Positions 7,359-30,354 are shown, numbered from the stretch's first letter. The stretch is 32,000 nucleotides of DNA from Candidatus Saccharimonadota bacterium (GCA_046350815.1 JAXLZO010000001.1:1-32000), one strand, 5' to 3'. Numbers and translations: made by a program. The notes: generated by a model from the sequence alone, not told the origin.

Positions 7359-7871
7359 CTACAAAATCACTTTCTGAATATCCGATCGAATAAGTTCGAG
7401 CACATTATGAGACAATTGTTTCTTGGGATATGGGGCATAATTCCCATCTGGACGGGGATCGGAAAATTCTTCACCATAAGCAGAAACAGACCTTTGTTTT
7501 GGTATCAAGTGCGCATGCAAATGTAGAACAGTGTTACTCAAAATAGCAATGTTTGGTCGAAACTCTCACCAGAGAATTTGATTCGCTCTCGACCAGATAG
7601 GGATAATAATATCGAAGAGCTCATTTCTTTCATCATGCGTTATACTAAGTAATCTCTCAGCATTTTCACGTCTTGCCCAAGCATAACAACGCCCTAAGTA
7701 CGAATATTTTCTGCATGAAGAAAAAGATCCCAATATTGCAAATGTAGCATATTGATGCGAAGATGATCGTAGAATCCATGAGAAACTACTTATACACCAA
7801 GAAAAATTCTTCCTGACCAGGCTTATACGATCAAAAATCCCCAAGAGCACTTTGAAAATATTCACCACCAA
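7359..7871 (-). CDS. HIT-family nucleotide hydrolase/transferase
   Basis: Track ORFs 7566..7871 and 7359..7541 are joined by TGA at 7566. The sequence is YLGRCYAWARRENAERLLSITHDERNELFDII...ILWGEFRPNIAILSNTVLHLHAHLIPKQ, containing the histidine triad HxHxHxx. Stop is TAG at 7359-7361. The start (TTG or GTG near 7871-7863) is uncertain. Confidence 0.7.
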
Positions 7872-8604
7872 TAATTTTCTGAGGAAAAAATTTATTTATT
7901 ACACCATTGATGCGATTTTCTCATGATCCTACAAGTATACCTGTTGAGCTATTGGAGAGATCAAAGATCGATCCAGAGGCATTCGAAAAGAGATTGATTA
8001 GGAGATTACTCGAGTTATTATGTGAAAGATTTGAATCAAGTGTAAGATTGGAAGAAAAAGCACTATAAGAACGCTCCAAACGAATCCCTTCAAAATTGAT
8101 ACGGCCAAGATGATCTGAGTATGCAAATCCATGAAGCATGCCATCACTTTCACAATAATATACTCCGTCATCTTGGGGATTATCAAGTCGAATATATCAG
8201 AGTGGTGAGACGCTCGACCCAACGTTCCCAAGAGATCGAACAAATCACGAGAATTTATACCCAAATCACTGACTACAGAGCGGGGTAGATCCAGAAATAT
8301 GAGCACCTAAATTTGTATCACTCCCCCAGTCAAAAACAAATGGACCATATAGCGTATTGATAAAGTATCATCCGAGTCGATTATCCATCGTTGTTGCATC
8401 CCCATTGGTATTGATATACTTGGTAGCACCATTATCAGACGGAGAAAAAATCACTTGTGATCCATTCGATCCAAATGATCCTGTGGACGAGGCAAGTGAG
8501 ATCGTTGTATCCAGAGCAAGAACAGAACTTGGAGGTAATCACACAAATGTAAAAGAAGCCAAACAAAACCAAACGGTAATGAGTCGAATGAATAACGAAT
8601 TCAT
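7786..8604 (-). CDS. Secreted hypothetical protein with G-x-aromatic...G-(W/Y/R)-I-x-F type repeats
   Basis: ATG at 8604. Signal peptide is MNSLFIRLITVWFCLASFTFVGLPPSSVLA. There is a single frame through TGA at 8539, 8368, 8266, 8248, 8200, 7921 and 7831. Repeat-like segments are GGYFINTLYGPFVFDW, FSGFVRSLGNVGSSVSPLGYIRLD and LHGFAYSDHLGRINFEG. The first true stop is TAG at 7786-7788. Confidence 0.6.
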
Positions 8605-8658
8605 AAAAAAACTTTCTCGAAGTATAAGTCTTTTGCAAAAATAAAAAAATTTTTCATA

Positions 8659-9432
8659 ATGAGAAAAAATATGCACCAGAAAAAATGAGGATTCACCCTC
8701 GTCGAACTCGTTGTAGTAATTACCATTCTTGGGATACTCTCTGCAGTTGGATTCAGCTTCTACGGATGATACCAAGCATCTGCCCGTGATGCTATTCGCA
8801 GTGCTGATATGGCGAACCTTGAAACTTCTCTTTCCGAAACAAAGAGATTGCGTGGATCATATCCAACACCTATCAATCCACTCGAATTTAGCTGGAGCGG
8901 ACAAATTGTTGCACTTCAGGGAAGCATAGATGAAGATACGGGAATAAATAATATTCCAAGTGATCCTCTTCTGCATCGATCATACACATACAGCACATCT
9001 CAGAAGAGACATCAATACATGCTTGCGGCGACTCTTGAAGCTGCCTATGCACAAGAATCAACCTATCTGCGAACCAATTATCAGCGTGCGAGCGTTGACA
9101 TTCTCCCATCTCTTGCATATGCAACCACCGGCACAGGAGAGATAACAACGATAAAACAAACGGCACTCCTTGATAAATCTCTAAAAAATATCCCCTACAT
9201 TCTCAGAAAAGATGATGTTAATGTTGGGCAACCAAAATCAACTGCAACCACATATGAAGACATACTCACTCAAACCAATCCTCAGGTAAAGGAGCTTCCG
9301 AAATATATCTCCGACAGCTGTAGCGAGCTTGGACTGCATCTTGCTTATATTGGCACTGGAAATTATTATCTACGTGATGCAAGTGGAGCAACAGTTGTTG
9401 GGGAGTGTAACGATACATCGGTCAGTCAGTAA
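8659..9432 (+). CDS. Type IV pilin / pseudopilin with a prepilin N-terminal cleavage-methylation domain
   Basis: Translation begins MRKNMHQKK-G-GFTLVELVVVITILGILSAVGFSFYG-G-YQASARDAI. The leader glycine before FTLVE is TGA (8686-8688). It is in the same frame as track ORF 8809..9432. Stop is TAA at 9430-9432. Confidence 0.85.
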
Positions 9433-9493
9433 AAATATATTGAAATTCAACTAATTCATCTATAATCAAGACATTATTTTCTGATTTTGATCT

Positions 9494-10465
9494 ATGATTG
9501 AAATGTTTCCTATACCGGGTTTCTGATGAATGCAAGTGGTAGGGAATTTTCTCTCCTTTGAGATTTATGTATTCATTTTTGTATGCGTAAGTCTTTTTTT
9601 ATTTCTCAAAGCACACACCTACAAAGATATCCTCTTCGCAGTCATTGCGGTCGGACTGTATAAATATCTCACGCTTTCACTCTTTGGAAATTCTACCTGT
9701 ATGTGTTCTGGGAACACCTATCCAGACGTAAGCGTGATCAATATTTTTATTGGCATGCTCGATGTAGGAACACTACTAATTGCAAAGTACCTGAGCGAAC
9801 GATGCAAGATGAATAGAAAATATCGTTTTACTTTGCTTCTCCTCCTTACGTACTTTATCTTTCTCGTCAATGAGATGATCATACAATCCATGGGGATCAG
9901 ATCATACACAGAAGATATCTCCAATCTTCTTTCACAGAGTACATTTTTGATGCTCCCAATTGAGAATATACCCTATATTCTGGCGGTTGCATTTTATACA
10001 GTTGGCATATACAGTTTTCTCGAGAAAGTGGACCAAGCAAAGACGAAAAACGTACCACAATCATCTTTCACAAAAACACTCTGAATATCGATTATATCAG
10101 TATTCGCACTCCAAATCATCGTACATCCTATTTTCTTGGATACGTGACTTCCTGAATTTACGTACTTGTATCAAGATATTAACTGGCTTGTGACGATCCT
10201 CTGGTCACTTGCGATCGCAACCATTCTGACACTCATAGGAAAAGGAAGATTTGATATTTACCAAGACTTGATCTGTTCATTTTTTGGTATCCTCATCTTC
10301 AATCTCATACTCTTTATCGTTCTTTTTCAAATCGGTATTTTGCGTATCGCTCCAAGTGTGAACGACTATCTCTGGGGTATCAATTTTTTTGGTCTTCCGA
10401 TCGAAGCAATAACAGGACTTACCATTGCCACACTTATAAAAGTACTTTGCATAAAAAGATTTTAA
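9494..10465 (+). CDS. Polytopic membrane protein, possibly two tandem lycopene-cyclase-type domains
   Basis: Track ORFs 9530..10084 and 10166..10465 are in one frame, extended upstream to ATG 9494 through TGA TGA (9524-9529) and joined through TGA at 10082 and 10145. There are two copies of a hydrophobic ...LPIE... motif (FLMLPIENIPYILAVAF and FFGLPIEAITGLTIATL), resembling the PxEE motif of CrtYc/CrtYd-type cyclase domains. Confidence 0.6.
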
Positions 10466-10478
10466 TATCATTGCTCCT

Positions 10479-11327
10479 ATGAAAAACAATTTCTTGCTCG
10501 GGCTCATATCATGAATCATCATCATCCTTGTGTATAAATTCTGATTATTCGGTCTTCTATCAAGCGAAACATCATTCAAAATGAGTGGGGTCGAACCACG
10601 ATATGTGAGCCATTTTCGCTATACTCCTATCTACAAATGAGAAGAACAAGGCACACTATCAACAGGATGAGAGCTCTACAAAGAAAAAATCAAGGCAATG
10701 CTTCCAAAAATTGAATCTCTCTTGGGTAGATCCATGAATAATGAATCAATCCACCTCTCTATAGCAGATCTTGGCAATTTTCCTATTCTCATCAAGGTAT
10801 TGGAAGGTAAAATTACCATTATAGAAACATCCGAAAAAGATTTCTCGCCAAGTATTGTCTTTCGTGTACAAAAGGCAGATATTGACGGATTGGCTTTCTT
10901 TCTCCAAGATTGAAAACTCAATGCGGAAGAGCAGCTGAAAGTTGCCGATGTTATACTTCCTGCAATGACTGAGAGAGTCTATCGAACAAAAAAACTCTAC
11001 AAACATGGAAGTCTCTCCGCATTCTGATTCGATGATCTCATGCAAATCGAGATCAAACACCCAGAAGGCATCAATCGTCTCAGCGTTCCATTGAGTCTTC
11101 GTGTAACAATAGCTAATATCGATGGACAATGGATAGTCACACCATGATTTGTGGGTGATCCTGATGTTCGTTTCTCTCTTAGCCTCGAGGATGCACTCAA
11201 GATATATCAGCTCATCACCATAGATCTTGAAAATGCCGAGACGAAACAAACAGGGATCGCGGTAGGGAAAGATATATTTGCGATTCTCTCAGAGAATCAA
11301 ACCTATGTCAGAAAAGACCATGAATAA
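10479..11327 (+). CDS. Hypothetical membrane-anchored protein
   Basis: ATG at 10479. The TM helix is MKNNFLLGLISGIIIILVYKFGLFGLL. The frame was checked through TGA at 10512, 10542, 10638, 10668 and further TGAs to TAA at 11325-11327. The stop overlaps the next gene's start (ATGAATAA). I preferred this to the 167-aa antisense standard-code ORF 10746..11249. Confidence 0.6.
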
Positions 11328-12120
11328 AAAAGTAGTCGTTATAACAGGATCTTCATGATGACTTGGTCATGCTCTCACAGAGGATTTTCTCCAAAAATGA
11401 TACCATGTAATAGCTGGTGTAAGAGATAAAAAAGAGTTAGAGAGAGAACCTCATGAAAACTATGAAAGGATATCACTCGATGTAACCTCTGCAAAAGATC
11501 GATCAGAACTTCTCCGTCGGATCAAGGCAATCGGAAGACTTGATGTACTCATCAATAATGCTGCCATATCCGGATGGTGAGATTTTTGGAAGAGAGATAT
11601 GAATATTGATCAGAGCGTCTATGAGATCAATCTCTTCTGACCGCTTGAGTTGATGAAAATATGTCACGATTTACTCGAATCGGGTAAATGATCCGTGATT
11701 AATATAAGCTCTATCGCTGGGGTCATTCCAACACCATTTCTCGCTTCATATGGAGCATCGAAGATCGCACTCGAATCACAGACCATCGCTCTCTACCTGG
11801 AGAATCCACACACCAAGATTCGCTATCTCAACCTCAGGCTCTGACCGCTCACAGAGGGTCTCTGTGCAAATAAGATCAACCCATGAGATCATCGCTACAA
11901 AGAATGAGTGAAAACACATATGGAAAAAATCAAACACTTTCATGGATACCCAGTGGGAAAAGTGGCAGAATCCATATTTTCATTTCTTGATTCCGAAAAC
12001 AAATTCTCAACCAAAACACTCGGAACATGGGCAAAGATCATTGTATTTCTTGCAAAGTTTCTCCCACAACCGTGGTACCAGATACGCATCGGAAAATGGT
12101 ACAAAAAAATTTCTTTCTAA
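11320..12120 (+). CDS. Short-chain dehydrogenase/reductase (classical SDR)
   Basis: MNKKVVVITGSS-G-G-LGHAL carries the TGxxxGxG motif, with TGA TGA at 11356-11361. Also present are LINNAAISGWGDF, NLF-G-PLEL, G-SVINISSIAG and the catalytic YGASK. It is in the same frame as track ORF 11908..12120. Stop is TAA. Confidence 0.9.
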
Positions 12121-12123
12121 TCT

Positions 12124-12879
12124 ATGATCGAACTTATTATTATCGGAGCTATTATAGCGATTGCTACGCAACAAAACAAGGGCAATAATGTTGTACAAAG
12201 AAACCAGAGTAATAATATTGTGCAAACCGCAAAACCAATGGGGATTATCTGGAGAACTATTCTCTTTGTGATCATCACGCCAATTCTCATGGGTGCGGTT
12301 TGATTAACTCTTTGTATTGGATTCTTCATAGTGGGCGTATCTGGTGCTGAAGATTTAGCTATGACTCTTTCATGGATTATTATACCACTAGCATTGTGCT
12401 GGATTCTCTATAAAAGCGTTCGAACGACGTTCGCAACAGAAATCGGAAGCGGAACGAAGCAATCATGAATGGAACAATGAGATCAGACAACCTCACCAGA
12501 GAAAAAAAGTATGAACATACTTGAAGATATTCTTCCGGTGACTCCTCAAAATAATATGTCTCCCGAAACTCTTGATCTTATGCAAAGTTTAGAGTCAATG
12601 GATATAGGAAATATCGAATCGGTTGTTTTTCTCGGAGCAAATGGAACCATCTTCTCATCGGAGACAGAGAATATAAAGCGTCTTGTCGTGTATATTACCG
12701 ATAAACTCAAAAAGATCGTGTTTGCCCCAGAAGAATTACGAAAGATCTACCATCATGTTTACAGCTATATTGTCTCCAATCTTCCTCCAACAGAATTTGA
12801 AACACTCTCAAAGAAAATCGAACAATTTGTTCAAGAAGGTGGGGAAGTAAAAATAGTGACACGTAACACATTACTCTAA
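12124..12879 (+). CDS. Hypothetical protein with N-terminal TM helices and a soluble C-terminal domain
   Basis: ATG 12124 is in frame with track ORF 12511..12879. The two parts are joined through TGA at 12301, 12466 and 12478, with no TAA or TAG between them. An internal start at 12511 cannot be excluded. Confidence 0.55.
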
Positions 12880-12883
12880 ACCT

Positions 12884-13039
12884 ATGATCATCATTCTCTT
12901 CATTATTTTCCTGCTTCTTGTCTTCACAGAAAAGTCCAGTACAAGTGGTAAAATCATCCGCGGTATACTCAAATTTATAGGAATCATCATTCTTATGGGA
13001 TTCGCATTCTGTACTCTTGTTCTCCTTGGTTCATTCTAA
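12884..13039 (+). CDS. Small two-TM hydrophobic peptide (51 aa)
   Basis: MIIILFIIFLLLVFTEKSSTSGKIIRGILKFIGIIILMGFAFCTLVLLGSF, ending in TAA at 13037-13039. It fills the gap between neighbouring genes. Confidence 0.35.
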   Translation: MIIILFIIFLLLVFTEKSSTSGKIIRGILKFIGIIILMGFAFCTLVLLGSF

Positions 13040-13062
13040 AACTTCTCTTTTATTAATTCATC

Positions 13063-14178
13063 ATGAATCTCTACAAACTTCCCTGGAGTCAACAAGATAA
13101 CCCGAATGGCTGGATCGAGCCAACTACGTATTGTCAGCTCAAATGTCCTGGCTGCTATCGTGGTCTCGACACGTGAGAAGTTATATTCCAGCATATTCCT
13201 CTCGATGAGATGAAACAACAGGTGGATGATTTTATCACCAAACGGAACGTCCAAACCATTTCGATTGCCTGAGGTGAGCCCCTCATGTATCCGCAGATAT
13301 TCGATTTAGTAGAATATATATCCTCCAAGAAGATTTTCACAAAAATTTATACGAACGGTATATCTCTCAATGAAAAAACTCTTAAGAGAATGAAAGAGGT
13401 GGGGCTCACAGAATTTGTTGTCCACATCGATATGTTTCAGGATCGCCAAGGGTGGATGGGACAAAATGAAACGGAGCTCAATGTACTCAGGCAATCTTTT
13501 GTCGATATGTTTCGCAAGAATCCATGAATCAATCTTGGTTTTATTATGCCGATCGGTGTGAACAATCTGATATATCTCGATGATATTATGCGATTCTATC
13601 GCACAAATATTGATATAATCAATCTCATTGTATTCACGGTATTTCGTGATGTTCACGTGGATAATCTTGCTACTATCGATGCAAAGAAGCTCGCAGAAGA
13701 AATCGCCAAGAGAGTGGATTATAACCCGAGTAGCTATCTTCCAAAGGTTCGAAAACAAGAGGAATATGCCTGGCTTCTTTCAGTGTGATTTGGCAATCCT
13801 TCCCGCTATTTTGGAGATGTGAATGCACATCAATACCAGAGATTTATGGAAGCATACTACAAAAAATGGTGAAAATTCTTCATCACCAAGCGACATATTC
13901 TCATGCGTGGAGTCAATCTCTGCAAACTCTTCGCGGGTATTATCTTCTCCAAGAGCGGTATGAAGATCATCAAAAACTATCTTCTGTCAAAAGAAAAAGC
14001 ATTCTACTACCAGAGTATTCTCATCATCGATCCTCCATCAAAATTTGGTGATTGGTGCGAAGCATGTCCTGATATGATGTACGTAAATGGAAAAATGTTT
14101 CCATCATGTATGGTCAACAAATACAAACCGTTTAAAGATCGATTTCTCAAAAAGAAAAAAGATGTTCCTCATTCGTAG
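13063..14178 (+). CDS. Radical SAM enzyme with a Cys-containing C-terminal extension
   Basis: EPTTYCQLKCPGCYR is the CxxxCxxC cluster. ISIA-G-GEPLMYP is the GGEP motif, with its first Gly as TGA at 13270-13272. The C-terminus reads FGDWCEACPDMMYVNGKMFPSCMV. Track ORFs 13285.., 13546.. and 13903..14178 are in the same frame. Stop is TAG at 14176-14178. Confidence 0.88.
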
Positions 14179-14764
14179 ATCACATATTCATAGTGCCAAT
14201 CTTCTCACATTTCTCGCGATACTCTATGGTCTCTGGGGAAGTATGAACATCACTTATGGAAATATTCATACTGGGATCGCTCTCATGATCGTAGGAGTTT
14301 GGTGTGATATGCTTGATGGATATATTGCGCGCAAATACAAACTGCAATCGCAATTGTGATCCATTCTCGATAGCTTTGCTGATATATTCCTCTATATTCT
14401 TCCAATTATTCTCATACAATGACGACTCTCTTGATATGATCTGATTTCTTGATTCATATTGAGTCTATTTACTCTCGCGTGATGTTTTCGACTCGCCTAT
14501 TTCACAGAATCAGGACTTATTACTAAATGAGGAAAGCTTCATTACCCAGGATTTCCCGTCTATTTGAGTCATATATTCTTCATCCTGCTCCTCATAGGAT
14601 CACCTTCATGATTGAGTCTCTCCTATATCGCCATTTTTTCACTGCTTATGGTGTGTGATTGTAATGTTCCAAAAATAAGCATTTTTCTCGGTATTGTTCT
14701 CCTTGTGATACTTATGGCAACCAATATTCTTTCTTCATTATGAGTATTCTCATCTGGATTCTAA
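14162..14764 (+). CDS. CDP-alcohol phosphatidyltransferase (PssA / archaetidylserine-synthase-sized, 200 aa)
   Basis: CDMLDGYIARKYKLQSQL-G-SILDSFADIF is an exact DGx2ARx8Gx3Dx3D motif, with the central Gly encoded by TGA at 14357-14359. The protein is multi-TM. Stop is TAA at 14762-14764. It overlaps the upstream gene by 17 nt. Confidence 0.88.
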
Positions 14765-15333
14765 TATACAACACTCTCTACATCTTCTGTGAATGTGGAT
14801 ATAGGTTTTTTGAGATGAAAGAATTATGGAGAAAGATTGCTCATATCGGAACAGGTCTCATAACATTTGCTTCAACACATTTTCTCATTCTCTCCGATTA
14901 TATTGTTCTCTTTGGATTCTTTTTCCTTTCTTTTCTTATCATTCGCAAATACCATCTCTTCAGAGTATTTGACGAAAAATGACGATGATTTGGTGATCTC
15001 TATTTTATCATTGGACAGCTTATTGCTATCCTTTTTCTGGAATACAATCGAACCATCACCGAGATATGACTTCTCATACTTACACTCTCTGATGGACTGG
15101 CACCATTTGGAAAATATATTTGGAGTGGGGAAATTATCTTTGGTAAGACCTACGGTTGAAGCCTCTTATTCAGTCTGATAACCCTCTTGATTCTCTCGTA
15201 TTATTTTTGATTTTCATTCACGATTATTCCCATTCTTACACTCGCAATTCTCGCAGAACTCCTGTGATACAAAGGTACAGACAATATTACGATTCCGGCT
15301 GTCGTCTGTATGAGTCTTTTCTTGATATGATAA
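14740..15333 (+). CDS. Polyprenol/phytol/dolichol-kinase-like membrane protein (CTP-transferase-1 superfamily, COG0170-like)
   Basis: Motifs are WRKIAHIGTG, LSDGLAPFGKYIWSGEIIFGKTYGGSLLF (compare gD..A..vG...G..k...KT.EGs) and a C-terminal TDNITIP. About six TM helices. Stop is TAA at 15331-15333. It overlaps both neighbouring genes. Confidence 0.65.
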
Positions 15334-16184
15334 ACTACTTTCTCACTCGCTTCCCGATTCTCCTCATAACATGTACTTCTCTTTCACAGATTCTAGGAAC
15401 ATTTTTTGCACTTCGAATACCTATTAATACCAATATTGTTTGTGTTTTTTTGATATTTTCATTGCTTTTTCTCTTCTTTATTCGAGTCATTGATGACTAC
15501 AAAGATCGTGAACATGATAGCAAACACTACCCCGAGAGAGCGATACAAAGCGGACAGATAAACCTCAAGATCCTTCTAAAAATTGCATTGGTTGGAATAA
15601 TATTCGGACTTTGACTTCTTTGGTATTTTTTCTGACTACTTCCATTCATTTTTGCATCGCTCTGAGTCGCGAATAATCTCCTCGGGATTCTATGATTTTG
15701 ATACGGTCGAGATTATAAATTCAAACATATCTTTTTTTATAGTATTCTCAATGGTCTGAGCCTTGCCTTCATTCAGCTCGCACTCTACAGTGTATCTGAG
15801 ATTCAATCATACGCATATTCATATGCTGGAATACTTTTTTTTCTGATGGTCTATTGTAACAATCATCTCTTCGAGATAGCTCGCAAGATACGATCCAGAC
15901 GAGATGTAAGGCACGGTGATAGTTACATGGAACTTCTTGGAGAACAAACAAATCTTTATCTCCTTACCTCAACCATATTCATCATTACGTTGATCAATGT
16001 TCTCATAAGCGGAGAGATTGGTACCAGCTATCAACTCACGATTCTCTACTGTTTGAGTGCTAGCTTTTTCATCATTCTCCTCTGATGGTTTCAGAAATTA
16101 CAGACCCGAAAACTGAAATACTCTGTTCTCTCTGCCACTATTCTCTTCTATATGATGAGTAATCTCCTCCATTTTTCCCTCTAA
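15327..16184 (+). CDS. UbiA-superfamily aromatic/polyprenyl prenyltransferase
   Basis: The first Asp-rich motif and following loop read IRVIDDYKDREHDSKHYPERAIQSGQI (compare NDxxDxxxD...RPlxxG). About eight TM helices. Six in-frame TGA codons were checked (15612, 15633, 15663, 15693, 15699, 16083). Stop is TAA at 16182-16184. Confidence 0.78.
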
Positions 16185-16189
16185 ATCCC

Positions 16190-18133
16190 ATGAAATATCA
16201 ACGCCTTCATATACTTCAAGAGAAAAATATTCTCACTCCACAATCGTTTCTCTACAATGGAGATTTGGATACATTAGGTTGATGGAAAACAACCTCTGTG
16301 ATCGTACGATCTTCTTATCGCTTCGAAGATGAAAATGATCGATCGTATGCCGGATTTTTCCAATCCATAGGACCAATTGATATACACGATACCAAATCCA
16401 TCACGAAAGCTATTGAGACGATCCGAGAAGATGCAAAATTCAAACTCACATCCATAGGACAATCATATGAAGATTTTGATGTTTTTGTTCAGGAGTATCA
16501 AGAAATAGATGGCGGCGGGGTAATATTCCTCCAAGACGAAAAAATGTTACTCCACTATTCCCACGGATGAAATGGTACGAAAAATATTGTAAATGGAACA
16601 CGACCAGATGCAACTATCTATACACAGCAATCATTTGAATTAGTCAGCGATGAAAACAAATACCTAAAAAGATATAGGAAACATATTCAAAAGACTCTGA
16701 AAAAAATCCAACGAATATTCACGGGAAATTTGGATATTGAATTTGGAATATCTAAATGAAATATCTTCATCTTCCAGGTTCGGCCACTCACAGCACACCC
16801 ATTCACCAATCATGGTATCCTCGATTCCAGTAATATCAGTGAGAATTTTCCGGGAACCGTTTCCAGACTCACTGCAAGCTTTGTAACACATCTCTATAGT
16901 CAGGTCTATCAATCACTCGCACATCATTCTGGGATTTCACTCTCAACGATCGCCCAATGCAATCATATTTTTCAAGATCTTATTGTCTACAAGGATAAGA
17001 AACTCTTTTATAATATCACCAACTGGTACAAGATGCTTTTGCTTTTCCCGGGAGATCACAAAAAATCTTTTGATACGATGATTGGGAGTTCATGAAAGGT
17101 TAACTATGTAATACTCGATGATATGATCGATCTTCTGCCTAGATTTTGTTTTCGAATAAAATACTTTTTTTTAGTTCTCTGGAAGATACCAACTTTTCGA
17201 AGAAATCTGAAGAAACTCGAGAATTACCTTGAAGATTTTTATGCTAAATTCGAGAAAATGAACCTTGAGACGACAACCCTGGGCGAAGTATATTTTTTCT
17301 ACAAACAATTTGAGTCACGACTCAATGCATCGTGGCATCTGACCATTGAAAACGACTTTGTTATTATGAAAATGTGAAAGAATATTGATCTAAGAGCTAT
17401 CAACGGTCTCATAAGTGCCAATCAAATTGAGAGCCTCAGTCGTGTCGCGCATGGAAAAATGACTCTTCAAGAATACAAAAAGATATATGGCGCGCGCCTT
17501 GGTGATGAGCTCAAACTCGAGAATACACAGACAGATAATGATAGTGTACTGATGGACATAATCGCCAAATACCGAGAAAAACCACCGTATGAAAAAGATC
17601 AAAAAACCAGAGAAACTCCTATTTCAGGATTCCTCTCTACATTCATCAAGAATCGTGAACAATTTCGACTCTATCGGGCAAAGAATTTTCACATCACTCG
17701 ATTACTTTTTGTGAGTATGGGGCAAAAATTAAGGGAACTCTGAAGTATTTCAAGAGAAGAAGATATTTTTGATCTCAGTATCCAAGATGTAGGAAGACTC
17801 GTACTTTCGCACCAACCTCTTTTGCAAGAGAATGGAAATAAAATACTCATCGGTAAAGCATTTTCTGGAAGAGCATATGTGATGAAGTCATTCAACAGAG
17901 AGGCTCTTAAATATGATGTGATTGTAGCTGAGAATTTTGATCCTGGCTGGACGAGTCTCCTTGGAAATCTCAAAGGAATTATTATCGAACGTGGCAATCT
18001 TCTTTCACACGTGAGTATTATGTGTCGAGAGCTCAATATTCCACTGCTCATGGGAGCAAAAGAAAGTACACTGCATATACAGACTGGAGATCATATATCC
18101 GTAAATTTTCAAGGAGATGTTGCAAAACTCTAG
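16190..18133 (+). CDS. PEP-utilising enzyme family protein: N-terminal PPDK_N/ATP-grasp domain plus C-terminal swivelling phosphohistidine domain (rifampicin-phosphotransferase-like architecture)
   Basis: Motifs are VIVRSSYRFEDENDRSYAGFFQSI, DIEFGISK-G-NIFIFQVRPLT, NISENFPGTVSRLT and YNITNWYKML. The C-terminal segment DPGWTSLLGNLKGIIIERGNLLSHVSIMCRELNIPLLMG matches the GG..SHaaIvaRE.GiP swivel motif. Track ORFs 16298.., 17123.., 17459.. and 17822.. all share one frame. Stop is TAG at 18131-18133. Confidence 0.85.
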
Positions 18134-19046
18134 TATACACATCAGAAAATATCTCGATCAAATCGAGACAAAGTACAATGCCTTCCGATACCATTCTGAT
18201 CATATCACACTCTCGAGGATAGATGACGTGTGCTTTTCGCACATTGAAAAAGAAATCATCGCAGATGATCGAGGATTTGGAATTCTTTTTTGTGATGATC
18301 GTATCTCATCGGAAGTTGGTTTTATAGGATTTTTCGAACTCTATCAGGTATCAGATAAAATGGACTTCATACAATACCTCATAGAAAAAGCAAAAGAAAA
18401 ATGATACAAACGATTGATCGCACCAGTCAATCTCTCCATCTGGGGGAGTTATCGCTTTTCTCATATATCGAGCAATCCGGCAATATATGGCGAATATCTC
18501 ACGGATCCAGAATATCCGGACATCTTCTTAAAAACTGGCTTTTCCAAATATGAAGGATATACAACAGCATATCGCGAAAGCAATCCATTTATAACCCTGG
18601 ATGAACTGGAGGATAATTTGGAAGTAGATGAAATCCCACAAGAAATACAAGATGAAGTACTCTTTTGACTCTCTTCGAAAATATTCGTATGAGCACCGAA
18701 GATATCAAAGGAAGAATTTGATATATATATGCAAGTATACAAAAAACTCTATACGAAGAATATGCACATATTCTGACTCAGATTCAACGGATCATATATT
18801 GGCTTCGCGAGCACTTTTTATGACGAAAAGAGTTTTATTATAAAAACGATTGGAATACTAGATGTTTATCGTGGAAAATGATATGGAAATCATTTCCTCT
18901 CGCATATTCATTCCTTTTATGAACATCTCAGCATCAAAAAGGCATTCTACCTTTTTATGAGAGAATCCGGGGATGCACTCGACCTCACACACAAAGACGC
19001 CAAATACCATAGAAGTTATTCCACCTATATTTTCCATCTATCCTAA
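18117..19046 (+). CDS. GNAT-family N-acyl/acetyltransferase with an N-terminal extension
   Basis: Track ORFs 18117..18404 and 18414..18668 are in the same frame and continue to TAA at 19044-19046. The acyl-CoA binding motif is DVYRGK-G-YGNHFLSHI (R/QxxGxG), with one Gly as TGA at 18879-18881. Confidence 0.68.
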
Positions 19047-19051
19047 AGAGT

Positions 19052-20131
19052 ATGACGATCACGGACATTCTTGCTATTTTTATCATTCTCGATCTTGCCG
19101 GTATCATTCATATCATTTGTATCAAGAAAGATCTCTTCAAATTTTTGAAAACACCAATATATGAGAAGCTCTTCTGAAAGAATAAAACCTACCGAGGTCT
19201 CATTCTGATGCCACTTCTGTCTGGGATGCTCGGAAGCTCCTATTTTGATTTCTCATTTGCACTGAGCCTTGGTCTTGTATGGATTCTCTGAGAACTTCCG
19301 AATAGTGCTATGAAGCGATTCTTTCATATCAAACCTGGAACATATGCCACAGGTGGATGGATACTCGTACAATATATGGGCGATACGATGGATAGTATTG
19401 TTTTCTTGCTGATCTTTTTAAATATTGTCTTCCCTATTTCTCTCGAAACAAATCTTATACTTCTGATAGCCTGATGTCTCAATCATATCATCATTGATGT
19501 ACTGTGTTATAAAATAGGCATCAAAAAACTCAACTTTGGCAATCCATTAATCATTCTCAATCAAATCATTCTCTGGATATTATTTCGACCATATATATGG
19601 TATTTTGTCACGAAACGATGAACGAACTACACGGTATTTGAGAAGAAAAAATCCAAGATTCTCATATCCAATCACATTAGTCAACTCGATCCATTTCTTA
19701 TCTGTGGCACGCTTCCATTTAACATATTTTTCTCATGCCTCCCATTTCGATTTCTGACATCCAATCAATTTATGGATAAGGTATTTCGATGAAATTTTCT
19801 TCGCATAGTCTGAGGATACAGAGCATATACACTTGATTCACAAGGGAATAATCACAGTTTGCAAATTTCTGAACAATTTCTAAGTCAAAATGAGGCGCTG
19901 ATGATATTTCCGGAATGAGGCATACACTATCGCAAATTCTGAGTGGGTGCCTTTTATCTCAAGGCTCACGTGCCAGAATCCACACTTCTCTGTTTTCATA
20001 TTGCAAAAGATCACCACCACTATAAGATAACCTTCAATGGAAGAGCTGAACTCACCGATCCATCATGAGATCTCATGATCCAAGGCACACAAATATTTCA
20101 AAACTCCTGCTATGAATCTCATGAAAAGTAA
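19052..20131 (+). CDS. Fusion protein: CarS-like (CDP-archaeol synthase / DUF46 family) N-terminal domain plus PlsC/LPLAT acyltransferase C-terminal domain
   Basis: The N-terminal half has LF-G-KNKTYRGLILMPL and LG-ELPNSAMKRFFHIKPG...GDTMDS. These compare with A. fulgidus CarS GDGKTWRG and GDLCGSFIKRRFGYERG...VDQ. The C-terminal half has ISNHISQLDP (HxxxxD) and MIFPE-G-G (FPEG, with TGA at 19916-19918). The whole frame was verified codon by codon. Stop is TAA at 20129-20131. Confidence 0.72.
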
Positions 20132-21179
20132 AATTGAGAAACTGAAGCTGATGTATACTATGATCCGATATAGCGGATCATACTCTCAGAAAATAGTAGA
20201 AACTTTTTTTGATAAATACCTCGGTCATCACAAAATCGTTCGTTGGCGAGATGGATTTCCCATCTATAGCAGCTTTGTCCCACCTATTTGGAGCGATGCG
20301 AGTGCACATCTGATGGGTGCAACGTTCTTTGGTCTCGTTGCAGACAAACAAATACCATTTCAGATGAATGTTGCCGTCACGGATATATGCAATGCTCAGT
20401 GCAGTCATTGCAGTTTTTACAATGGTATCCACGATGAAAATCGAACTATGCTCAGCAAAAACGAATACAAATGATTGATATCTCAGGCTCAATCCATCGG
20501 TATCAGTCATATTGGATTTGTCTGATGAGAGCCGCTTATGAGCGAAGATTTCTTTGAGATTCTCGCAGATGTTGATACCAAAAAATCAATTACCACACTT
20601 TTTACGAATGGATATTTTCTCGAGGAAAATGTCGAACGTCTGAACAAATTATGACTCACGACCATAGCAGTAAGTCTCGATAGCCCAGATCTCCACATGC
20701 ATGAAAAACTTCGAGTACTCCCATGACTCAAAGAACGATTGATACGTGGAATTGAGAAGGCAAGAAAGTATAATTTCAATCTTGTTCTGTCCGTGTGTCT
20801 CTTTGAAGGAAATTATTTTCATTTCTCCAGATATATGGAGCTCGCGCGCAAAATGGGATTTCATGAAGTACTTCTTCTCCCAGCGATCCCAACGTGAAGA
20901 TTGAAAAATAAACCTCTCAAAGTGAGCATCAGCGGTGGAAGAGCGCTCAAAAAAATGGTGGATAAATATAACCAGAACTGTGATTACCCACCCATATACC
21001 ACTACAGTTGGATCAGTTCATCTGCATCACTCTGATGCCAAGGAGGAAAAAAATATATCTATATTTCACCATACGGCGATCTTCTCCATTGTGATTTTGC
21101 TAGCAAATCTTATGGTAATATCAAAGACGACACACTCTCGGATCTACTCTTTGGTAATAAGAAATTATGTGGTTTTTAG
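20112..21179 (+). CDS. Radical SAM enzyme with a SPASM/twitch-like C-terminal Cys region
   Basis: VTDICNAQCSHCSF is the CxxxCxxC cluster. In GFV-G-G-EPLM both GGEP glycines are TGA (20523-20528). The C-terminus reads L-G-CQGGKKYIYISPYGDLLHCDF, matching the C.aG...l.i.pdGdv.pC pattern. Stop is TAG at 21177-21179. Confidence 0.85.
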
Positions 21180-21186
21180 CTCAGTA

Positions 21187-21211
21187 AAACAGTCGCAAAT
21201 TGCGACTGTTT
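21187..21211. terminator. Bidirectional hairpin terminator between convergent genes
   Basis: The stem is AAACAGTCGCA / TGCGACTGTTT (11 bp, loop AAT). It lies between the radical-SAM stop (21179) and the rseP stop (21225). Confidence 0.6.
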
Positions 21212-22394: not shown

Positions 22395-22456
22395 AAAATA
22401 CCACGCTAAAAGAAGAGTGGTATTCTAGTGATTTTTATCAAAGATCCAACTGGAAA

Positions 22457-22750
22457 CTACTTACGTGCAAGTTTTTCTTTGAGTTTATCAAAGAGATGAT
22501 TAATAAGATCTGCAAGATGCACATATCGTTCACGATCAAAGTGAAAATGCTGATCAACGATATCCACATTGAGAGTTCATGAGTAGCTACCATCATCAGC
22601 ATGGAGCTCAATTTTTACATCGATACGTACTTCCCTATCGGCAAACGGACGAAGGTAGGAATCAAGTTTGTTCTCAAGATTTTCAGAGACAAGACGTTCT
22701 GTTGCAGGTTTTGCAGAATCTGGAGCGTGAATAATAATTGTTTGTGACAT
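22457..22750 (-). CDS. hpf: Ribosome hibernation-promoting factor / RaiA (short form)
   Basis: Translation is MSQTIIIHAPDSAKPATERLVSENLENKLDSYLRPFADREVRIDVKIELHADDGSYS-G-TLNVDIVDQHFHFDRERYVHLADLINHLFDKLKEKLARK. It shows the S30AE-family pattern and has one TGA. Stop is TAG at 22457-22459. Confidence 0.7.
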
Positions 22751-22779
22751 AGGCAAAAAGTTAAGAACGAACCATGGAT

Positions 22780-23583
22780 TTATCAGTGATTTGGTGGATC
22801 GCTTCCATGGCGTGATTCATGATGAACAGTCGTACTTCATACATCTTCTCGGAGATCAATCGTATCAACACGAAGTTTTGCAGTCTCGACAAAATATTTG
22901 TGACGTGGTTTATCATCCCCGACATGATAACCGATGGAATGATGCTCAATTGGGGTTACCTTCTCTTTTACCACATCCGTGAGTGTTCGCAAAAGAAGTG
23001 AAAATGCCTCTTGATCGCTCATAGCGCCCGCATCTGCAGCATCATTAAGGGTATGGGATGCAAGATCACTATGGTTTCCTCGCATAATAGATCGGATGGC
23101 GAGTGCACCATCATCTGGAAAGATCGCTCACCGGAGTATCGGATCAAGATTCGAATCCGTCGTATGAAGGCGAATATCGCCCCGAAGAAGAATCGGATCA
23201 TAGAAGGTAGATGAAGTGCTTGAGACACTCACGATCGACTGTGGATCGATGTATGACTCATCAAATGATATTCCCGAATATCGCAAGTCTACCATACCAT
23301 TGGTCGTCACGATCCAGACTCGAAAATACCAGAGACAGATATTATAGAGCACCACTATATAAATAGCGATGAGAAGCATATTCATACTCATCGGAGTGAG
23401 GAGCGCATGAATACCAAATGAGTTGTATTTATAGAGAAAAATCGGGAGAAATATACCAAAAAATACCCAAGGTGTTATCGACTCGATCAATTCAAAAGGA
23501 TGAAGCCGAATAATACGCACTATCTGCTCGACAGGAACGATTCGTCCGAACAAGAACGATTCAAAAGCAGAGACGCTATTCAT
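22780..23583 (-). CDS. Hypothetical membrane protein (N-terminal TM hairpin plus a possible bPH-like soluble domain)
   Basis: Track ORFs 23128..23583 and 22837..23085 are in one frame, joined by TGA at 23128 and extended through TGA at 22837 and 22783 to TAA at 22780-22782. Confidence 0.55.
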
Positions 23584-23727
23584 ATATTCTGATTATAGTC
23601 TGAGAGGAAAAATTCTCAATAAAAAAATCTCACTTTGATTGCTGCAATTCTCATGATGATTGAAGTATAAAAATACTCTTTGTAATTAAATTCTTTGTAT
23701 CTCAAGATATACTGAATATTATTCATC

Positions 23728-24048
23728 ATGATCTCATTTCTTCCCCACTTCGATATGAACGAAACATTTATTCTTATTCTCACCTTTCTCTATTCCATAG
23801 GTTGAGTAGTGACTTTTTTTGGATTTATCCCAACTATGTTGGATTTATGGAAAGGAAAACCAAGTGCAAATATATCTACCTATATTGTTTGGACGCTCAC
23901 AACACTTTTCACTTCGCTTTATGGCATTTTTGTGCTGCAAAATTTAATCTTCATAATAGTGATCAATCTCCAATTATTAGCATGTGTTTTTGTTCTCATA
24001 TTGAGACTCAGATTGAATTATCTGAAAAAAAATTCTACATTGAGATAA
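23728..24048 (+). CDS. Three-TM PQ-loop/SemiSWEET-like small membrane protein
   Basis: ATG 23728 is in frame with track ORF 23809..24048 through one TGA. FFGFIPTMLDLWKGKPSANISTYIVW resembles the PQ-loop motif (lPQ....k.ks..g.S), with Thr in place of Gln. Confidence 0.45.
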
Positions 24049-24052
24049 GAGT

Positions 24053-24439
24053 ATGACAAATATCAAACTTCACCAAAAGGCAATCATCTTCAATCACGAA
24101 GGTAAGATTTTAACGCTCAAAGCAAGCTACAAATGACTCAAATGGGACCTACCAGGTGGTGGACTGGAATTCCCAGAGCTTCACGAAGAAGCACTCAGAC
24201 GTGAAATCAGAGAAGAAACAAGTCTCGAAATACAAAATATTGTTCCGCTCGAAATACAGAATGTCTACAACAAAGAAGCCGATGAATATATGATCTTCAT
24301 CGGTTATAAATGCTGAGTTCTATCCGGATCAATCAAGCTTAGTTCAGAGCACTCCGAATATAGATGGGTAACCAAGGATCAATTTCTCACTCTGGATGCA
24401 ATACCATATCTCAAAGATTATGTAGCAAAGTTTTGCTAG
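24053..24439 (+). CDS. NUDIX hydrolase
   Basis: The Nudix box is PGGGLEFPELHEEALRREIREETSL (GX5EX7REUXEEXGU). Two in-frame TGA codons. Stop is TAG at 24437-24439. Confidence 0.85.
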
Positions 24440-24488
24440 TCTTAAATCCATTATTATTATCAAAGTAAAAATTAACATTACGTTTTAT

Positions 24489-24764
24489 ATGACCGATAAA
24501 GAAGATCCAATCGTTCCCCTGTTTATTCCGAGTCTTGTTGCAAAATTAAAAGCAGCTGAAGATAAAAAGGGTTCCTCTCTGACAGAAGAAGAAGTTATCA
24601 ATATGAGAGATATTTCAATTGCCGTAACAGTGCCATTGACAATTCGCAATGAAATTTGGGAATCTCGTGGTTATAATGATATCAGTGTAGAAAACTGTTG
24701 GCAAGATTGGTGTGAAATAAGAAAAGAACTACTCAACTATGATACAACAAAAATGGCACTTTAA
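24489..24764 (+). CDS. Hypothetical protein (91 aa)
   Basis: The ORF is intact in any code and is followed directly by a strong hairpin. No family recognised. Confidence 0.5.
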   Translation: MTDKEDPIVPLFIPSLVAKLKAAEDKKGSSLTEEEVINMRDISIAVTVPLTIRNEIWESRGYNDISVENCWQDWCEIRKELLNYDTTKMAL

Positions 24765-27435: not shown

Positions 27436-28156
27436 TAGGGTCTAGACTAGCAAATTTTTAAAAATAGCTTTTTTTGCGAGTCTGAAATTTTTATAATTGT
27501 ATCGAAATTCGCACCCTTTCAAACGAAGATGAAATTTATCTGGGGCAATCCCATTAAACTTTGCCATTCTTCTTTTGCAGAAACTCCAGAAAGATTCAAT
27601 ACCATTCACATGATTCTTTCCTCTGGCAAACTCATTCTCACTGTGAAATACCCTATAGTGATCATATCCATTTAAAACAAGAGAATCATATGCTTTCCAT
27701 CCATCCGTATAGATGGTAGATCATTCCAGTATTTTCCCATGAATAATTGGCATAAGTTCACTTCTGGAGCAGTTCTCTACAATACTTACAAATACTCTTC
27801 CATCTCGCTTGAGAAGTCCAAACACTGGTGTTTTTCCTGCAGCTCACCTTCCTCTTTTTCATCTAACCCGACGAGCACCAAAGTAACTTTCATCCAGTTC
27901 AAATTCTCATCAGAATTCATACCTTTCTTTGAAACTCTTTGATTCCTCAATGGAAATTCGCACAATAGCCTCTCGAAATCGGTTATACCAAAGATTCACA
28001 CTATTACGATTTATCCCCATAATTTTTGCTGTCTGAGTAGCAGTAAAATCCTCAAAAAAATAGTAAAAAATTCTTCAAATTTTATAAGTCGATAATTTTG
28101 TGTATTTGATCATAAGCAAATAGTGTAAGAAGTACTATTTGCTAGTCAAGACCCTA
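27436..28156 (-). mobile_element. IS1595-family insertion sequence (about 721 bp) with 20-bp imperfect terminal inverted repeats
   Basis: IRL is TAGGGTCTAGACTAGCAAAT (27436-27455). The reverse complement of IRR (28137-28156) is TAGGGTCTTGACTAGCAAAT, a 19/20 match. The repeats enclose a single transposase gene. I could not identify a target-site duplication. Confidence 0.8.
27442..28113 (-). CDS. IS1595-family (ISXO2-like DDE) transposase, intact under code 25
   Basis: The protein (223 aa) contains F-G-G-EFELDESYFGARRVR-G-KRGR-G-AAGKTPVFGLLKRDGRVFV...STIYTDGWKAYDSLVLNGYDHYRVFHSENEFARGKNHVNGIESFWSFCKRRMAKFNGI. I scanned every codon. There are six in-frame TGA codons (28075, 27910, 27907, 27859, 27844, 27721) and no TAA or TAG until 27442-27444. 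Confidence 0.85.
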
Positions 28157-29564: not shown

Positions 29565-29597
29565 AAATTTGCAAAGAATGAAAAGATAGTATAGCAT

Positions 29598-29981: not shown

Positions 29982-29996
29982 AATCATATCTTGATT

Positions 29997-30032
29997 AAAA
30001 AATCCTTCAGAAATATTTCTGAAGGATTTTTT
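29997..30032 (+). terminator. Strong rho-independent terminator
   Basis: A perfect 18-nt palindrome arm pair, AAAAAATCCTTCAGAAAT / ATTTCTGAAGGATTTTTT, follows the STAS stop directly. Confidence 0.7.
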
Positions 30033-30051
30033 CATCTGATGACTCCAATAT

Positions 30052-30340: not shown

Positions 30341-30354
30341 ACCGCAAAGAATCC

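Follow-up and report, generated by a model that had tools for sequence, protein, structure and literature searches.

The Gracilibacteria, the Absconditabacteria and the bacteria of the candidate phyla radiation (CPR) in general have been described as devoid of lipid synthesis and as living on the lipids of their hosts (PMC8080830). What, then, does a row of lipid enzymes do in such a cell? The question is raised by a stretch of 32,000 nucleotides (nt) from an assembly of Candidatus Saccharimonadota bacterium (GCA_046350815.1, JAXLZO010000001.1:1-32000), the whole of which is referred to as the window. The original prediction for this window described eight coupled genes on the + strand (13063-21179), here termed G1 to G8, and read them as an archaeal-type or hybrid membrane-lipid pathway. 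The eight genes were recovered exactly, including their coordinates, their overlaps and the genetic code 25, and all eight family assignments hold—seven with Pfam hidden Markov models (HMMs) and that of G3 through the names of its homologues. However, the unit is larger than the eight genes first proposed and comprises 13 genes of the + strand spanning 9494-21179. Its enzymes belong to recognisable families with intact catalytic motifs, are organised as an operon, are conserved as a unit and occur in pairwise fusions. The reading proposed here, held with moderate confidence, is that the operon, which belongs to a Candidatus Gracilibacteria bacterium, provides a self-contained route for salvaging, assembling and remodelling a glycerophospholipid, that the route starts from lipid alcohols of outside origin, and that this lipid possibly carries mixed isoprenoid and acyl chains.

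The genes of the operon become visible only when the code of the host is taken into account. In the standard code (table 11), the region from 12 to 22.5 kb splits into approximately 90 short open reading frames (ORFs), which yield fragments only. Reading through TGA produces a row of long ORFs on the + strand with 3-9 in-frame TGA codons each, all of which end with TAA or TAG. These codons fall on an invariant glycine in the TGxxxGxG motif of a short-chain dehydrogenase/reductase (SDR; TGSS@@LG in the window, with @ for TGA), on the glycine of the GGEP motif in both radical SAM genes (IA@GEPL and FV@@EPL) and on motif glycines of PlsC (FPE@G) and RseP (LPI@GF). Since TGA occupies invariant glycine positions, the host code is code 25 with TGA encoding Gly, and code 4, in which TGA encodes Trp, is excluded. 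The tRNA and Rfam scans of the window gave no match and hence contribute no suppressor tRNA-Gly(UCA) as evidence for the code. A public protein collection translates the recoded relatives P0001, P0002, P0080 and P0082 with TGA as Trp—for example LFWKNKT for LFGKNKT—which lowers Pfam scores and may conceal such genes from annotation pipelines.

The operon is tightly packed. G1 to G8 are joined by overlaps of 17, 25, 7, 17 and 20 nt and by two 5-nt gaps, and the five additional genes that precede G1 (9494-13039) are separated from each other and from G1 by 13, -23, 3, 4 and 23 nt. The other adjacent gene pairs of the window are spaced by 41-2410 nt, the exception being a 113-nt overlap between two uncertain calls on the - strand. 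Alternative starts lie upstream for G2 (14087) and G8 (20037); the alignment of orthologues favours the starts used here (14162 and 20112). The 61-nt spacer between the end of a pilin-like gene and the start of U1, the first gene of the operon, contains a putative promoter-like motif, TTGAAA-15 nt-TATAAT (9440..9466, + strand), read from the sequence and located 27 nt upstream of U1. It was missed by the consensus scan because its spacer is only 15 nt long. At the opposite end, a perfect 11-bp hairpin (AAACAGTCGCA-AAT-TGCGACTGTTT, 21187..21211), likewise read from the sequence, lies between the convergent genes G8 and rseP and is a candidate bidirectional terminator; it was not called by the terminator scan because it lacks a T-run. 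The promoter and terminator consensus scans of the window performed no better than on shuffled sequence. Because dense packing is common in small genomes, conserved synteny is the stronger evidence for a single unit.

This synteny, which the original prediction had expected in related genomes, is found in at least five recoded lineages of the Gracilibacteria type (related loci are numbered with the prefix L). L001 (GCA_017973835.1) shows the gene order of the window including U1, U2 and SDR, and L089 is collinear with the window at 87-91% nucleotide identity. L010 (on a 582-kb contig), L011 and L002-L004 contain the same genes, with the blocks [U1-U2-SDR], [G1-G4] and [G5-G8] permuted. That the gene set stays together despite its changed order is the strongest evidence for a single function. 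These contigs are those of the relatives of G7, of which only ten were found in a collection of 5.8 billion clustered proteins.

Two observations concern individual loci of this group. In L001, a gene for a patatin-like phospholipase (12171-12971) follows G8 after 15 nt on the same strand, as would suit an enzyme that feeds lysolipids or fatty acids into the pathway. L002, L003 and L004 are independent metagenome assemblies in which the cluster of approximately 11.1 kb fills contigs of 11.3-11.5 kb. Their order of 12 genes is circularly permuted—G7, G8, U1, a small ORF, U2, SDR, G1-G4, G5, G6—and all three contigs begin just upstream of G7, which could mean that the element is small and circular, that it is present in tandem or that the assemblies repeatedly break at this point.

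The UbiA-superfamily prenyltransferase G4 (15327..16184, + strand; PF01040, 47.6 bits, gathering score 34.2) was compared with the PDB by means of a profile of 15 family members from many phyla. The best match is the DGGGP synthase of M. jannaschii (6M31, 50.9 bits, E 1e-12, full length), followed by chlorophyll synthase with 18 bits. No other solved UbiA enzyme, those of MenA, UbiA, UBIAD1 and heme O synthase included, was matched by the profile at E ≤ 10, and MenA, UbiA and CyoE were excluded as assignments on this ground, so that G4 stands outside the MenA, UbiA and heme O synthase groups as predicted. In NCBIfam, G4 matches PRK13592 and PRK12884, both uncharacterised prenyltransferases, and then the DGGGPS models PRK12882/PRK12883 (16-22 bits with cut-offs of 296-353); all of these matches are below threshold. 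Across the 15 members, which come from CPR, DPANN, Bacteroidota, Proteobacteria and other groups, the first Asp-rich motif RxxDxxxDxxxD is invariant and the second is replaced by ExxRK. The residues R53, D56, D60, D64, R186, K187 and Y200 are invariant, and E183 is present in at least 90% of the members. As judged from the sequence, G4 is DGGGPS-like but presumably not a canonical DGGGPS.

G7 (19052..20131, + strand) is a fusion of a CarS-like domain of the CTP:lipid-phosphate cytidylyltransferase type (residues 1-165) and a PlsC-type acyltransferase domain (190-300). The latter matches PF01553 with 28.3 bits (gathering score 23) and features NHISQLD (HX4D) and FPEGG; against TIGR00530, it reaches 31.7 bits with a cut-off of 103 and hence is no canonical PlsC equivalog. 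The CarS-like region proposed originally is borne out at the level of the family. With an E-value of 0.01 or lower (best 3.8e-13), six of six members match PF01864, and the family profile finds a single structure in the PDB, CarS (5GUF, E 0.0025); the single-sequence search of the PDB with G7 gave no match. Three of the six members also match PF01148, the family of bacterial CdsA. In the model of the 88%-identical protein P0001, the first Foldseek match is the PlsC of T. maritima (5KYM), and the membrane domain matches CarS 5GUF with a TM-score of 0.51 and a probability of 0.72. G7 keeps the motifs FGKNKTxRG, ELPNSxxKR and DxxDS of the CarS-like family, and its N-terminal domain fits a divergent subfamily. 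A CarS-like domain fused to PlsC or to a CDP-alcohol transferase in bacteria was not found in the literature searched. Such a fusion to the CDP-alcohol transferase exists in Proteobacteria and Spirochaetota. The stand-alone CDP-alcohol phosphatidyltransferase of the window is G2 (14162..14764, + strand; PF01066, 56.4 bits, gathering score 22), a PssA-like protein in which the full motif DxxDGxxARx8Gx3Dx3D is intact (sequence CDMLDGYIARKYKLQSQLGSILDSFAD). Its best NCBIfam match is TIGR00473 (pssA), with 58.7 bits over the full length and a cut-off of 107; the archaetidylserine synthase models score 43-46 bits, below cut-off.

Two unrelated proteins of kinase type are encoded. G3 (14740..15333, + strand) is a membrane protein that was tentatively assigned to the CTP-dependent polyprenol/phytol/dolichol kinase family by its family profile: the 69 homologues retrieved are named dolichol kinase, phytol kinase or phosphatidic acid cytidylyltransferase by JGI/NCBI, and three have PF01148. 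G3 itself has no match in Pfam and NCBIfam, nor do five of its homologues or, taken together, eight homologues of G3 and U1. RK..H, D118/A121 (SDGLA in G3 itself), K136/G140 and G.DN...P are among the residues that do not vary in the G3 family. A relationship between the G3 family and the CarS-like domain is unsupported in hhalign (7.7% probability). G5 (16190..18133, + strand) consists of an ATP-grasp domain, a substrate domain and a His-swivel domain (PPDK_N 34.8 bits and PEP-utilizers 58.4 bits). Its best PDB matches are the structures of rifampin phosphotransferase (RPH) of Listeria, 5FBS and 5HV1; its homologues have PF27448 (Rph_4th), and His607 is invariant. Against the RPH equivalog NF041857, G5 scores 43.5 bits over the C-terminal His domain only, with a cut-off of 999. 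PEP synthase and PPDK were excluded as assignments since the PEP (phosphoenolpyruvate)/pyruvate TIM barrel is missing; this, together with the RPH-like domains, argues for a small-molecule phosphotransferase of the RPH type and not a PEP synthase.

G6 (18117..19046, + strand; PF00583, 25.4 bits) is a tandem-GNAT acyl- or acetyltransferase. The AlphaFold2 model of the 94%-identical protein P0080 (pLDDT 82.5, pTM 0.84) features a tandem GNAT, and the top Foldseek matches are mostly tandem GNATs—5KF2 with a TM-score of 0.62, VipF and 2WPW—at TM-scores of up to 0.63. MprF and FemX, which are aminoacyl transferases of lipids and peptidoglycan, are found lower in the list. An enzyme of this kind points to a head group with an amine, for example serine, that becomes N-acylated.

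The radical SAM enzyme G1 (13063..14178, + strand; PF04055, 70.5 bits) contains Cx3Cx2C and three conserved C-terminal cysteines. Its nearest solved relative is GDGT-MAS/Tes, the tetraether or macrocyclic archaeol synthase, in line with the predicted link to lipid tails, although only in the core: the family profile matches GDGT-MAS 7TOL with 57 bits ahead of the next structure at 34, the single-sequence search ranks 7TOL first as well, and the alignment is limited to residues 21-193, the radical SAM core of approximately 175 residues. The NCBIfam Tes model NF045702 is likewise matched in the core only, with 52 bits and a cut-off of 450. G1 may work like Tes, yet is not a member of Tes. In three DPANN-labelled metagenome-assembled genomes (MAGs), G1 forms the C-terminal half of a protein of approximately 560 amino acids (aa) with a PlsC-type N-terminal half (NHPERID, FPSGE; L019 9208-10959, L042 13147-14904 and L016 6442-8139). 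The N-terminal signature of G1 is near-identical in the DPANN protein (LPWSIKDNPNGWIEPTTFCQLKCPGCYRG) and in the window (LPWSQQDNPNGWIEPTTYCQLKCPGCYRG). The ether-linked, probably isoprenoid chain and the tail chemistry of the product are suggested by the DGGGPS-like G4 and the Tes-like G1 together. The second radical SAM enzyme, G8 (20112..21179, + strand; PF04055, 77.2 bits), carries a C-terminal Cys cluster of the SPASM/twitch type, the SPASM match of 20.8 bits being below the gathering score of 21.5. Its relatives in NCBIfam and the PDB are generic (AhbD, MoaA, BlsE and SkfB), and its orthologues occur in the Gracilibacteria-type loci L001, L002-L004, L010 and L011, in L014 of the Peribacteria and in DPANN loci.

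The five genes upstream of G1 are all on the + strand. U1 (9494..10465) encodes a 323-aa polytopic membrane protein with an internal repeat and belongs to a very rare family; a TGA-free fragment used as the query found only 9 relatives among 1.84 billion protein representatives. It is present in L001, L002-L004, L010, L011, L014 and L089; in DPANN loci, two genes of half the size take its place. U1 scores 17.9 bits against Lycopene_cyc PF18916, below the gathering score of 27, and another homologue scores 15.2 bits; the remaining U1 homologues do not match this family. U2 (10479..11327; 282 aa, N-terminal membrane anchor) has no Pfam or NCBIfam match and has orthologues at the same position in L001, L002, L009, L010, L011 and L089, with 42-47% identity in L001/L002. 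The classical SDR (11305..12120; PF00106, 115.5 bits) is syntenic in the relatives and has generic NCBIfam matches only, including 3-ketodihydrosphingosine reductase with 95.6 bits at a cut-off of 400. U4 (12124..12879), a 251-aa membrane-anchored protein without a Pfam or NCBIfam family match, occupies a variable slot of the operon and is weakly similar to the gene in the same slot of L001. The apparent gap ahead of G1 is filled by a small ORF of 51 aa (12884..13039) with two membrane helices, and the operons of L001 and L002 have ORFs of 69-74 aa in the corresponding region. A 184-residue fragment of U1 is 100% identical to a protein in the 90%-identity cluster of MFO0763250.1, and the 94%-identical protein of G6 clusters with MFO0763260.1. 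Both entries are named hypothetical protein and belong to a MAG of a Candidatus Gracilibacteria bacterium, with the locus tags U0518_00060 and U0518_00110; the spacing of these tags is consistent with one extra gene, namely the 51-aa ORF.

Outside the recoded lineages, the distribution was followed with a profile of G5, which retrieved 212 relatives from 185,579 species genomes; the first 80 loci were mapped with HMMs of the operon proteins. Reduced versions of the cluster occur in Saccharibacteria, Peribacteria and DPANN archaea. Versions of G1-G7 in the standard code, accompanied by a ferritin-like di-iron protein, are found in L005, a Saccharibacteria MAG and a Peribacteria MAG. Ten loci lie in MAGs labelled by their depositors as Woesearchaeota, Nanoarchaeota, archaeon or Methanosarcinales and carry G8, two half-size U1-like genes, G5, G6, G4 and G1. 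One of them, L019, further encodes a protein with a diacylglycerol (DAG) kinase catalytic domain, a BtaA-like DUF3419 protein and a fatty-acyl-reductase-like protein. When G5 was placed in a rough neighbour-joining tree without support values, two clades resulted. Clade B contains the loci of Gracilibacteria, Saccharibacteria, Peribacteria and DPANN and two of Bacteroidota, all of them clusters of the radical SAM type; clade A is purely bacterial and contains Bacteroidota, Proteobacteria, Planctomycetota, Myxococcota, Bdellovibrionota and Spirochaetota.

G4 is present in 68 of 83 G5-carrying loci and directly upstream of G5 in 39, and G6 is directly downstream of G5 in 48/83. The triad of UbiA, G5 and G6 is widespread in free-living bacteria (Bacteroidota, Proteobacteria, Planctomycetota and other phyla), where it stands beside other lipid-related genes. 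Counted over 77 standard-code loci, the standard-code loci of clade B included, the neighbours are an AMP-ligase (48 loci), an APH/EcKL kinase (35), a BtaA-like DUF3419 protein (32), HMG-CoA reductase (24; fused to a kinase in L006 and L076, the two examined), an MMPL transporter (19) and a CDP-alcohol transferase with a CarS-like protein, fused or adjacent (15). Because the triad is so widespread, the operon is regarded as a bacterial lipid module, as yet uncharacterised and of wider distribution, that has been elaborated in a lineage-specific manner. The triad also occurs in culturable bacteria, among them Pontibacter, Sphingobacterium thalpophilum, Hymenobacter and Fluviicoccus keumensis.

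Two gene types of these neighbourhoods are of note in their own right. The ferritin-like or PaaA-like di-iron protein (213-221 aa; L005 6690-7304, L020 4858-5499, L014 2252-2917) sits between the genes for UbiA and the G5-like protein in standard-code CPR and does not occur in the Gracilibacteria operon; it could be an O2-dependent alternative to one radical SAM step. The fusion of HMG-CoA reductase and an APH/EcKL-type kinase (919-922 aa; L076 6351-9119, L006 2354-5113) is encoded between or beside the genes for UbiA and the G5-like protein in Moraxellaceae, Spirochaetota, Oligoflexales and others.

How these enzymes may work together is indicated by the fusions. CDP-alcohol transferase is fused to CarS, CarS to PlsC and PlsC to G1, which suggests that the enzymes act successively on one lipid intermediate; this lipid would first be acylated, then activated with CTP and finally given its head group, and it would also be the substrate of G1. 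The accessory enzymes of the relatives—DAG kinase, BtaA-like protein, fatty-acyl reductase, patatin and MMPL—act on lipids of the diacylglycerol type, and for this reason the operon is read as one of glycerolipid assembly or remodelling. The presence of two kinases, and the lack of genes for early steps in the window, would suit a pathway that is entered with salvaged alcohols. Such an entry is consistent with the published view of host-lipid dependence: the nearest sister group is said to make no phospholipids and to depend on those of its host (PMC8080830).

From these observations, the substrates, the order of the steps, the ether/isoprenoid product and the salvage logic are inferred as follows. 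Salvaged prenols and mono- or diradyl glycerols would be re-phosphorylated by the CTP-dependent G3 and by the ATP-dependent, RPH-type G5. G4 would then ether-link a hydrocarbon chain, probably an isoprenoid, to a free hydroxyl, and the PlsC domain of G7 would esterify an acyl chain. The resulting phosphatidate-like lipid would be converted into its CDP-activated form by the fused CarS-like domain of G7, after which G2 would exchange CMP for a polar alcohol, most likely a serine-like one. The amine of this head group would be N-acylated or N-acetylated by the tandem-GNAT G6, and the hydrocarbon tails would be modified by G1, G8, the SDR and the membrane protein U1.

Several findings weigh against this route. 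None of the operon proteins reaches a curated equivalog cut-off in NCBIfam, including those for DGGGPS, CarS, archaetidylserine synthase and Tes, and the CarS-like domain of the window protein itself scores 19.1-20.8 bits against PF01864, below the gathering score of 22. No function can be assigned to U1, U2 and U4, and the best fold match of G6 is a sugar (glucosamine) N-acetyltransferase. With the canonical second Asp-rich motif for Mg2+/diphosphate lost, the donor of G4 may be no ordinary prenyl diphosphate. Family scans of approximately 31 window ORFs found neither G1P (glycerol-1-phosphate) dehydrogenase nor GGGP synthase, as had been stated originally, nor a prenyl-diphosphate synthase, and no glycerol-phosphate acyltransferase is encoded in the window. 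In addition, salvage is not the general rationale of the UbiA/G5/G6 triad, since the triad also occurs in free-living bacteria with complete lipid synthesis.

Among the other explanations, a salvage of purely acyl phospholipids of the ordinary bacterial type is unlikely. A kinase, PlsC, a CarS-like protein equivalent to CdsA and a PssA-like enzyme would rebuild lipids of the phosphatidylserine type from lysolipids or diacylglycerol of the host; UbiA and the radical SAM enzymes would be accessory, for example through a polyprenyl-phosphate carrier, and no ether or isoprenoid lipid would be formed. The intact PlsC motifs, PssA as the best NCBIfam match of G2, the PF01148 matches in half of the CarS-like members and the lack of genes for isoprenoid supply in the window speak for it, as do the reported interchangeability of CdsA and CarS on their substrates (PMC7852524) and an enrichment of lysolipids in CPR reported in work that PMC8080830 cites. 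However, the frequency with which UbiA accompanies G5, often directly upstream, makes it central and not accessory; DGGGP synthase is the nearest solved relative of G4, G3 falls into a prenol-kinase family and the core of G1 is Tes-like. A pathway for an envelope polymer or lipid carrier, as opposed to a bulk membrane lipid, is distinctly improbable: UbiA would act on polyprenyl phosphate like decaprenyl-phosphate phosphoribosyltransferase, the kinases would recycle polyprenol, a phospho-alcohol unit would come from the CDP-alcohol transferase, and an amino sugar would be the substrate that the tandem GNAT N-acetylates. The UbiA superfamily does include transferases that do not act on lipid tails. 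The glucosamine N-acetyltransferase that is the best fold match of G6, the membership of G3 in the polyprenol/dolichol kinase family and the cell-wall genes for MltG, an M23 peptidase and FemAB in the window neighbourhood agree with this explanation. It conflicts with the fusions in which PlsC and CarS-like domains are joined together or to the head-group transferase and G1, and with the glycerolipid enzymes (DAG kinase, BtaA-like protein and fatty-acyl reductase) of related clusters; moreover, the operon lacks a glycosyltransferase and a flippase.

A cluster for an isoprenoid pigment or secondary metabolite, in which UbiA would be a chain elongase and U1 a cyclase of the lycopene type as in C50 carotenoid clusters, with the other enzymes decorating the product, is very improbable. 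It draws on the sub-threshold Lycopene_cyc similarities of 17.9 and 15.2 bits and on the two half-size U1 genes of DPANN, which are reminiscent of heterodimeric cyclases, and pigments are common among the bacteria with the triad, Hymenobacter and Pontibacter being examples. Nevertheless, Lycopene_cyc is absent in most U1 homologues, none of the loci examined contains phytoene synthase or desaturase, and carotenoid pathways have no use for PlsC, CarS or a CDP-alcohol transferase. Least probable of all is a complete archaeal-type pathway to archaeol-based phospholipids (G1P, di-ether, isoprenoid) with early steps encoded elsewhere in the genome. The DGGGPS-like, CarS-like and archaetidylserine-synthase-like matches and the sharing of the cluster with DPANN archaea would suit it, but the CarS-like domain is fused to a bacterial PlsC, none of the archaeal equivalog models comes near its cut-off, G4 has lost the second Asp motif, the window contains neither G1PDH nor GGGPS and clade A of the module is purely bacterial. 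Of the original proposal of an archaeal-type pathway, what stands is a lipid island with archaeal-type components and not the archaeal pathway itself; an ether/isoprenoid or hybrid product is suggested by the DGGGPS-like and Tes-like parts. On the computational points on which the proposal had made itself dependent—the placement of UbiA, the PF01864 match and the synteny—it was not refuted.

The salvage-and-remodelling route can be set beside known systems. With the late steps of archaeal phospholipid synthesis (DGGGPS, CarS and archaetidylserine/inositol synthase), the operon shares the same three superfamilies in a single operon. It differs by scores far under the equivalog cut-offs, a G4 without the second Asp-rich motif, a CarS-like domain fused to bacterial PlsC, the lack of G1PDH, GGGPS and prenyl synthase in the window, and the addition of two kinases, a tandem GNAT, an SDR and two radical SAM enzymes. 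The bacterial Kennedy-type route of PlsC, CdsA and PssA also proceeds through acylation of lyso-phosphatidate, CTP activation and head-group transfer, matching the intact PlsC motifs and the PssA-like G2. In contrast to that route, the cytidylyltransferase of the window is of the CarS and not the CdsA type, and neither PlsX, PlsY, PlsB nor genes for fatty-acid synthesis were found in the window. The GGGPS/DGGGPS homologues of the FCB group likewise include a bacterial DGGGPS-like UbiA, and clade A of the module is abundant in Bacteroidota. In FCB-group genomes, for which a mixed membrane has been proposed in Cloacimonadota, DGGGPS is paired with GGGPS and CarS is missing (PMC7852524, PMC6431249), whereas the window operon lacks GGGPS, has a CarS-like domain and ties UbiA to an RPH-like kinase and a tandem GNAT.

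For individual enzymes, Tes/GDGT-MAS (7TOL) is the closest solved core to G1, which is fused to a lipid acyltransferase in DPANN; the alignment covers the core only, and G1 has 371 aa compared with 526 aa and a different C-terminal region. RPH and PigC/RedH share with G5 the order of ATP-grasp, substrate and His domains and the lack of a PEP/pyruvate barrel. Unlike RPH, G5 has a divergent central domain, and its genomic partner is a UbiA. The side-by-side arrangement of a phytol-kinase-family G3, a second kinase and a UbiA resembles the phytol salvage of plants and cyanobacteria. There, VTE5 phytol kinase and VTE6 phytyl-phosphate kinase are followed by a UbiA-type prenyltransferase, so that the prenyl donor derives from a salvaged alcohol. 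G5 is, however, unrelated to VTE6, and prenols are putative substrates of the window enzymes. Homologues of MslS/Mss, the bacterial membrane-spanning-lipid synthase and thus a radical SAM enzyme of lipid tails, have been reported in DPANN and interpreted as remodelling host lipids (10.1101/2022.04.21.487849). The operon is a member of none of these systems and recombines their enzyme families. In the literature searched, no description of the cluster or of the module of UbiA, RPH-like protein and GNAT was found, which is no proof of novelty. The Lipocone paper mentions other UbiA neighbourhoods, and the Ubi-297 paper was set aside as a prior description since it deals with the unrelated ebo cluster. 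By its composition and host range, the operon is an unprecedented lipid biosynthesis or remodelling cluster.

The finding contradicts a simple view of the Gracilibacteria as having no lipid synthesis. Given a conserved operon with intact motifs, that picture would give way to one in which membrane lipids are actively re-synthesised and tailored and not just passively taken up. This variant of the cluster has its closest relatives in other CPR and in DPANN; a connection with the bacterial/archaeal lipid divide, and with an exchange of genes between these two groups of episymbionts, can thereby be tested. It is conceivable, though rather doubtful, that CPR (Gracilibacteria, Saccharibacteria and Peribacteria) and DPANN (Woesearchaeota and Nanoarchaeota) share a horizontally exchanged lipid-remodelling cassette that makes a hybrid ether/ester, isoprenoid/acyl phospholipid from host lipids. 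In this tentative scheme, the shared cassette would consist of the DGGGPS-like UbiA, the RPH-type lipid kinase, the tandem GNAT, PlsC, the Tes-like radical SAM enzyme, the second radical SAM enzyme and U1, and the CPR version would add the CarS-like protein, the CDP-alcohol transferase and the prenol kinase. If true, the cassette would be a natural enzyme set working across the lipid divide. As the core module is present in culturable bacteria, its chemistry should be solvable by ordinary genetics and lipidomics and transferable to the uncultured lineages.

The remainder of the window is of the housekeeping type and encodes MltG, GltX, RseP, an M23 peptidase, FemAB, a NUDIX protein and an IS1595 transposase. 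Directly upstream of the operon, the pilin-like ORF (8659-9432, + strand) features a type IV pilin N-methylation motif and is kept upstream of U1 in L089. An ORF of 408 aa on the opposite strand (7786-9012, - strand) overlaps it, has no family match and is probably spurious. Downstream, the region 22400-24700 contains short or doubtful ORFs only, with one NUDIX gene at 24053-24439. The IS1595/ISXO2-like DDE transposase (27442-28113, - strand; PF12762, 105.6 bits) lies 6 kb downstream of the operon. The ORF at 28527-30467 (- strand) contains 17 in-frame TGA codons and matches FemAB/Acetyltransf_6 with its C-terminal 180 residues only; its N-terminal part of approximately 450 aa is matchless and may be mis-called or a separate gene. 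The ORF at 22774-23598 is of odd composition, being rich in Arg, His and Cys.

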